A DNA stretch of 64,000 nucleotides from Octopus vulgaris. Taxonomy: Eukaryota. Numbering within the stretch: the first letter of the stretch is position 1; each line of letters begins with the position of its first letter. The translations under genes and the position numbers were made by a program. Shown here in pieces: positions 14,766 to 15,752 of this stretch. The notes under the pieces are model-generated. The model was not told the origin of the DNA. It saw only the letters and a program-made list of their open reading frames with translations, and did not search any database. The stretch covers positions 3,038,001-3,102,000 of the forward strand of contig OX597816.1 in assembly GCA_951406725.2 (NCBI GenBank), in the 5' to 3' direction.

Positions 14766-15752
14766 ATATATATCTCGTGACGCATATTTGCCATTTGAAT
14801 ATGGCTAACCCCTAAGGGTGGATGCTACTGTAGTTTGTAGCCCCAGGAAGATACCTCCTCCAGCTGGCTATAGACACACTTTCTGTGCCCTATCAGTATT
14901 TGTGAAGGGAAGTCATCCTTCCCGTCTTCAACTTATGATACACACGGACTCGAGTTTCAAGGTATTTACCTATCATCGGCGTGTGACAATCATAGTTGTC
15001 GACGAGAATTCAGTTTCCCTCACAAATACATATACTTTTTCCAGTGTCGATTGACACTGATATTGAAAAAGTGAAATCAAACAATGATATATATATATAT
15101 GCCTCTGTGTGTGTGTGTATATGCAAGGTGCAACGAAAAGAACCTTCCAGATTAACATCTTCTTGATAGATGTATCAACATCAGCCATTACGGCGAACAC
15201 GAATTCAAGTCTAATGTTTTGTTTTGTTTCACGTTTTACTTATTTTAGTCATTAGACTGCGGCCATACCGAGGCACCGCCTTGAATGGTAAGAAAAAAAA
15301 ATTATATGGAAACATCGTTACCCCCTGCCTAACTTCACCAGTGCCACGCCGTTGGCTGTGTAGAATATGGAAGATCTTTTGTTGCTCCTTGTATATAGCA
15401 TGGCTGTTACGTTTTGAATTATATAGCGTCGTAGTTATTTTGGTTAACAAAAAAAAAAGAAAGAAAATGTGAGGTGTGTGGGGGGGGGAATATTGCTTTT
15501 TTTACTTTAAGCTCAAGGCCAATATTTTTGAATAAAAAAAGTTGGGATATTTTCAGTTCAGTCGACTCCAGTATATTAGATGGGGTATTTATATATACCT
15601 ATACAAGACCCCGAAAGGGATGGATCTTGAAGTCGACTGTGGCAGGACTCGAAAACCTGAACAGAGAAATAAGAACTAAACATTGCAATGTCTTTAACAA
15701 TCAAATTCTTGTGTCCGCTACCACCTTCTTTGCTTTCTATATGAGAGAGAGA

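Follow-up and report, generated by a model that had tools for sequence, protein, structure and literature searches.

The closest described systems are the non-LTR retrozymes, such as the 350-390 bp repeats of mussels (PMC7229834; 10.64898/2026.07.22.740005). As these sources present them, they are matched by the octopus family reported here in its 352-bp non-coding unit with one type I hammerhead per unit, its tandem arrays and dispersed monomers, its GC content of about 45% (in the one unit measured) and a predicted circle that is highly self-paired. In contrast, the octopus family mostly carries a U4C core, including the whole of its tandem array, positions 10.1-11.1 are never paired in the aligned copies, and the sampled loci are mostly partial tandems with inversions and not long arrays. 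Cleavage by retrozyme monomers is reported to be weak in axolotl, while those of coral and mussel cleave alone (PMC7229834). Exonic retrozyme copies of Xenopus tend toward 3′ UTRs (10.64898/2026.07.22.740005), so a copy in a 3′ UTR is not in itself new. In our literature search, which covered main texts outside subscription journals, no publication was found that treats retrozymes of octopus or a family with U4C in the majority.

The second group for comparison is that of the hammerheads in the pLTRs of Penelope-like elements (PMC4209133; PMC8557442; for the anole Poseidon element, PMC11167929). The octopus repeat is similar to them, as far as those reports describe them, in its partial tandems with an inverted truncated copy, an optional tail and an AT-rich target, and in a palindromic helix III suited to dimers. 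It differs in having no ORF and no sequence link found to a 781-aa RT-GIY-YIG family of the same genome, and in its 6-bp helix I and short helix II, which are of the “canonical” and not the minimal type. A minimal Penelope hammerhead is described as having no activity by itself and weak activity as a dimer (PMC4209133). Dead hammerhead mutants of the anole element still insert in vitro, a result that fits a spreading C4 lineage, and in the RNA-seq data discussed in the same report no reads were found at the cleavage site (PMC11167929).

Two further systems share single features with the locus. The Clec2 hammerheads of mammals (Martick et al. 2008, as recounted in PMC2950038) also lie on the sense strand between a stop codon and a probable poly(A) site. 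However, the Clec2 motifs show conservation among mammals and reduce the output of reporters, whereas the octopus motif belongs to a repeat copy without modification, has a variant core and shows no sign of being conserved. The same core substitution has been recorded in a viroid, likewise a replicating small RNA element; U4C is a rare variant there and the majority state of a genomic family here. According to PMC3088659, U4C considerably reduces activity in vitro, the viroid bearing it (cited there) remains able to infect, and of the mismatches at 10.1-11.1 the one best tolerated is U10.1.U11.1, a known natural variant.

The locus lies behind a Hey-like gene of Octopus vulgaris, in the 64-kb stretch of DNA that was analysed as a whole (the window). 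Its features are the following:

14941..14985, minus strand: type I hammerhead-like motif (sequence)
14985-14980 paired with 14946-14941, minus strand: stem I, 6 bp (sequence)
14979-14973, minus strand: core CCGAUGA, with C4 at 14978 (sequence)
14972 and 14959, minus strand: U10.1 and U11.1 (sequence)
14971-14960, minus strand: helix II (sequence)
14958-14956, minus strand: GAA (sequence)
14955-14948, minus strand: palindrome ACUCGAGU (sequence)
14947, minus strand: C17, with the putative cut site at 14947/14946 (sequence)
14775..15092, minus strand: solo 318-bp copy of a 352-bp non-coding repeat (family comparison)
15089..15100, no strand: TA repeat at the upstream junction, the target microsatellite (sequence and family comparison)
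14760..14774, no strand: TA repeat at the downstream junction, followed by (TG)n and (TATG)n (sequence and family comparison)
14885..15043 (approximate), minus strand: predicted long imperfect rod extending stem I on both sides (folding prediction)
15838..16565, minus strand: coding part of the last Hey exon (Hairy Orange domain PF07527, E 3.1e-13)
11227..15837, minus strand: probable long Hey 3′ UTR of about 4.6 kb (separate contig pieces from probable RNA runs of three studies)

The motif has the three-helix junction, the open helix I and the NUH triplet (here GUC) of a type I hammerhead. Its letters, strand, coordinates, 6-bp stem I, palindrome, GUC site and cut position are as given in a preliminary description of the locus, and so are its two deviations, namely U4>C and a U.U at the base of stem II. 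The suggestion made there of dimer-dependent cleavage holds for the architecture, which is that of a type I hammerhead of the dimer-requiring kind. Helix II consists of the U.U at 10.1-11.1 followed by 4 bp, and stem I is paired in 93% of the cells of an alignment of 60 family copies. With C at position 4, the Hey copy departs from the canonical core CUGANGA...GAAA, and it has therefore been filed as a hammerhead-like core variant; at 10.1-11.1, the expected base pair is lacking in all 60 aligned copies. An Rfam scan of the window gave no match at the gathering score, and the 58-nt fold of the motif is unremarkable alone (z -1.37). A related wider pattern has 672 matches in the genome versus 0 for a reversed control, which places the motif above chance level.

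The window holds other elements of related kinds. A second, minimal-type hammerhead-like family is present at 18534-18561 (plus strand), 38701 (minus) and 45671 (minus), with position 6 changed to C in the first copy (A6C) and to U in the other two, and with an unpaired base before G10.1. The first of these is the motif at 18531 that had been put forward as the only hammerhead within a Hey intron, in antisense. It does exist on the plus strand, with its core starting at 18534, but it belongs to this different family and has its own A6C change. An orientation bias was rejected, as this is one case, itself mutated in the core; its two relatives at 38701 and 45671, which may be intronic, lie on the minus strand. 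At 8693-8730 (plus strand) there is a type I hammerhead-like motif with a canonical core, a 4-bp stem I, a weak helix II and a near-palindromic helix III. By visual inspection of the translation, 35353-37709 (minus strand) contains broken reverse transcriptase frames of the LINE type, and a tandem repeat with a unit of about 185 bp, visible as repeating peptides in the list of open reading frames, extends over 58332-59432.

The insert that carries the motif had been estimated at ~240 bp next to (TA)n; comparison with other copies gives 318 bp, flanked by TA repeats at either end. When the genome was searched with 14790-15110 as the query, 1,973 candidates were obtained, and the 40 that were scored contained 69 matches, of which the best 30 show 96-100% identity over about 300 bp. 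Other loci with partial tandems and a 34-bp segment joining the units allowed the full unit of 352 bp to be deduced; the Hey copy, a solo copy shorter than the full unit, is devoid of that segment. At the sampled loci, inverted truncated copies adjoin the partial tandems, and the 3′ ends fall into two classes separated by about 45 nt, with TA-rich sequence behind most of them. A few copies (L006, L009 and L053) have nearly the same starting point within a TA repeat as the Hey copy. One locus, L073:1200-4347 (G000:C2), is a head-to-tail array of 8.9 units with 98% identity, in which nine cores are spaced 352 bp apart and all nine carry C4; it is a natural construct of C4 multimers. A local duplication at L061 (G000:C6:99085200-99095100) shows the same inverted/tandem insertion twice, with a spacing of 7,924 bp.

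The family thus has the short unit (about 170-400 nt), the single type I motif and the tandem repeats by which retrozymes are recognised. Its GC content is 45% in the one unit measured, next to a retrozyme limit of under about 45%, and 66% of the unit is paired in the predicted circular fold. The unit has no coding capacity, being too short for a reverse transcriptase or an endonuclease, and an 81-aa stop-to-stop frame inside the Hey copy is a chance one that is absent from L061. The Hey motif is accordingly a hammerhead-like variant in a family of the retrozyme type, built as a retrozyme monomer is, as judged from its letters. Between the Hey copy and L002, on another contig, there are 2 differences in 318 positions, both at the junction edges, and 313 contiguous bases are identical. 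This identity indicates that there was no change after insertion at Hey, and the insertion is probably very recent.

The two deviations of the core are family traits. Among the first 30 loci there are 38 motif copies, Hey included, a sample biased toward close relatives of the Hey copy; they divide into 19 with C4 and 19 with U4, and all 38 carry U.U. Genome-wide, exact 33-letter patterns gave 66 C4 and 57 U4 matches, and the exact 33-mer of the Hey copy accounts for 12 of the 66 C4 rows (itself included). With the wider pattern, C4 is found in 379 of the 672 matches (56%) and U4 in the remaining 293, so that C4 at Hey is the expected outcome. In the alignment, which holds 60 of the 62 extracted copies (two with rearranged flanks were left out), positions 10.1-11.1 read U.U, C.U or C.A, and a standard pair in none. 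In DNA runs of two organisms, the summed depth at 14978 is U4 in 44,226/57,391 and 10,133/15,630, the rest being the letter of the window or unlisted, which weakly suggests that more than one species has C4. Since both traits occur in many unlinked copies, C4 and U.U at Hey were inherited and not tuned there.

This result bears on a proposal of the preliminary description, according to which the ribozyme was selectively attenuated at Hey, in the sense that an active ribozyme would have been inserted and later weakened by selection to protect the poly(A) tail. The sense orientation and the probable 3′ UTR position are what such a history would predict, but U4C and U.U are common to many unlinked copies, the identical 33-mer recurs in the 12 rows just mentioned and no internal change separates the Hey copy from L002. 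For these two positions, the proposal is already refuted by the family comparison, unless an older insert with U4 was replaced here through gene conversion by a C4 copy, and we give it almost no credence. The other proposal made there, of weak cleavage that would tune the turnover of Hey mRNA, gains no support from the present data.

A tree of 69 near-full copies, taken from 173 blast hits with seven of the nine array units left out, was rooted at its midpoint, and its bootstrap is not fully settled. The outermost branches of this tree are old U4 copies with 77-84% identity to the Hey copy, followed by a series of C4 groups; the Hey copy is placed among C4 sisters. Nested inside the Hey copy's own group, a U4 subfamily with the loop AAAC forms a clade with 99/97 support. 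Uniting 30 U4 rows against 33 C4 rows, with position 4 masked, was rejected (p-AU 0.0003) in a test that left out six rows (five scattered U4 copies and the far outgroup) and whose group was named after viewing the tree. The simplest reading is that U4 changed to C4, that a long amplification followed and that a reversion then founded the new U4 subfamily, with a direction that depends on the root. CpG decay as the main origin of the U4 copies was rejected, because the mirror change G5A has 18 matches versus 293 for U4; judging by these counts, such decay accounts for a small share of them. Helix II has been kept through one double change from G-C to A-U, which maps within the C4 part of the tree; as a single inherited event, it may hint at selection on structure.

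Regarding the host gene, the last Hey exon encodes a C-terminus with YRPW...ELAY and ends in a TGA stop at 15840-15838, its acceptor CAG being at 16568-16566. The bHLH exons are located further upstream, and exon 1 was not found in the window. The C17 of the motif (14947) is 891 nt beyond the last base of the stop codon, in agreement with the ~0.9 kb reported before. The earlier observation that the minus strand holds no AATAAA between the stop and the motif is also borne out; ATTAAA is likewise absent there, and the first AATAAA past the stop is at 13307. Variant hexamers on the same strand are TATAAA at 15593, AATATA at 15577 and AGTAAA at 15506 and 15240.

RNA coverage of the gene was assessed with contigs of four probable RNA runs (three studies) mapped on 11000-17200; the status of these runs as RNA is a software guess, no run being on record as RNA, and the contig mappings overall come from six different runs out of 24. 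Contigs of the coding exon end at 16567, which is the splice acceptor, as expected of spliced RNA. Behind the stop codon, run X1 gives pieces at 15126-15731, 14222-14574, 13272-13901, 12199-12658 and 11227-11700, most of which recur in X6 and X10, at depths similar in order of magnitude to that of the coding exon. Such contigs reveal neither strand, nor transcript ends, nor the continuity of a single transcript, and in the mapped probable RNA runs none was seen to bridge the element. As there are pieces on both sides, down to about 11227, the motif probably sits within a long Hey 3′ UTR of about 4.6 kb, as had been supposed when it was placed inside the mRNA; we infer from this the inclusion of the element in the mature Hey mRNA. 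At 14976-15074, X1 and X10 have one contig each, which corresponds to a diverged U4 copy with 15-16 differences, and no contig with the letters of the Hey copy, while the depth of the flank at 15126-15320 is 10-12. This pattern would fit an empty allele, but it has not been counted as evidence because contigs drop variants and skip repeats. In the contigs of the DNA runs X16 and X17, 15106-15209 is uncovered, and those of the second organism leave the unique flank of the insertion uncovered. The probable 3′ UTR also contains pieces of other repeats at 13020-13160 and 15234-15285, the former with a very high summed depth in the probable RNA runs.

Folding predictions are unfavourable to the hammerhead in a single molecule. 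The hammerhead fold has -5.2 kcal/mol versus -10.3 kcal/mol for the MFE structure, and the predicted pair probability of helix III is 0.00 in five flank contexts. Between molecules, the palindrome is predicted to form a duplex of -10.7 kcal/mol, and a strand-swapped dimer (C4/U4) would have -31.7 versus -37.1 for two monomers, a comparison in which the outermost dimer helix is not counted; nearest-neighbour energies ignore core, loop-loop and tertiary contacts. Natural U4 copies are predicted to fold as badly as C4 copies, so these energies argue for dimer dependence and not against C4 specifically. No second copy able to pair is present within the 64-kb window. A single C4 core whose helix III has 2 bp most likely cleaves hardly at all. 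By the dimer model, the damage done by C4 in a swapped dimer would be limited to the enzyme strand, and a U4 partner could still cut at the GUC.

The insertions of the family show the anatomy described for Penelope-like elements in PMC8557442 and PMC11167929, with partial tandems, inverted truncated copies, an optional tail and a microsatellite target. The same genome holds a Penelope-like family with an intact 781-aa RT-GIY-YIG frame in 16 of 148 GIY-YIG matches (150 of 6,136 candidates were scored), found for example at L094:1445-3787 and L095-L099; its RT score is 28.9 bits, against a Pfam cut-off of 29.6, and the family has probably been active recently. On the coding strand of the six RT-GIY-YIG loci (L094-L099), a hammerhead regex found no match, and no DNA common to the 352-bp repeat and this family was detected in the 26 loci compared; the mobilising partner is therefore one that we infer. 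A 75% match in L097 was discarded as a link; it is on the opposite strand, some 1.2 kb ahead of the ORF, and was taken for a separate copy in the neighbourhood. L061, with two cores 7.9 kb apart, was discarded as an autonomous element, being a local duplication with no RT frame.

Considering these data together, the motif is most likely a young and nearly silent passenger, brought behind Hey by a repeat insertion. A solo 318-bp copy would have been inserted, likely recently, into the TA microsatellite, probably by a reverse transcriptase/endonuclease of the Penelope type acting in trans, and U4C and U.U, which the family comparison shows to be inherited, came with it from the source subfamily. 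With a single unit, a 2-bp helix III and a C4 core, cleavage is predicted to be very poor, so that the copy would behave as a near-neutral passenger in the probable 3′ UTR, and not as a regulatory element. Points that weigh against this reading are the infectivity of the U4C viroid and the good tolerance of U10.1.U11.1 (PMC3088659), the retention of helix II within the C4 part of the tree, the coral and mussel monomers that cleave unaided (PMC7229834) and the equally poor predicted folding of natural U4 copies. One could object that Hey mRNA does not regularly contain the motif, either because most transcripts end earlier or because the insertion is polymorphic and many animals lack it. The variant poly(A) hexamers at 15593, 15506 and 15240, the 313-base identity to a sister copy, suggestive of a very recent insertion, and the failure of any contig to bridge the element all speak for this objection, which we consider unlikely but worth some weight; the pieces of X1, X6 and X10 that reach about 11227 with exon-like depth count against an early ending only, and not against polymorphism.

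It is improbable that the Hey copy reflects an insertion filter, by which a copy crippled on landing is of the only sort that survives in sense within mRNAs, those with U4 being purged. Retrozymes are reported to be depleted from the exons and introns of Xenopus (10.64898/2026.07.22.740005), and the active Clec2d 3′ UTR hammerhead lowers reporter output by 80% (recounted in PMC2950038), but a single case has no power when C4 is expected in 56% of the copies. Residual or trans cleavage could also trim Hey mRNA, the Hey GUC being cut by U4 family RNA through the palindrome, which would link Hey turnover to retrozyme expression. The predicted palindrome duplex, the 293 U4 matches of 672, the diverged U4 copy with an A10.1-U11.1 pair that appears as a contig in two probable RNA runs and the infectivity retained by the U4C viroid (PMC3088659) are compatible with this scenario. 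Against it stand the swapped dimer predicted to be weaker than two monomers, the long stem I rod that would have to open, the report of no cleavage-site reads for the anole Penelope element (PMC11167929) and a Hey copy without any sign of age or conservation, and we regard it as very doubtful.

For Hey itself, the consequences are small, as a repeat insertion accounts for the motif. For the family, the comparison of copies establishes a pattern of U4 and C4 cores in natural, nearly identical subfamilies (97-98% alike), both of them amplified, together with a nine-unit array that is entirely C4. Descriptors that fix CUGANGA would overlook more than half of such a family. It is conceivable, but a long shot, that a C4-core lineage lost the canonical U4, was amplified through several subfamilies to hundreds of copies with its helices kept and later produced a new subfamily with the canonical core, having spread either without cleavage or with C4 copies cut in trans by U4 copies in strand-swapped dimers. 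If trans cutting were true, sense-strand C4 copies in host mRNAs, that of Hey included, would be targets of trans-acting natural ribozymes. The pairs of C4 and U4 subfamilies bear on the role of hammerheads in Penelope-like elements and retrozymes and on whether self-cleavage is needed for their spread, for which the evidence so far, as presented in PMC11167929, comes from that one in vitro study, and they are of modest interest as a natural experiment.
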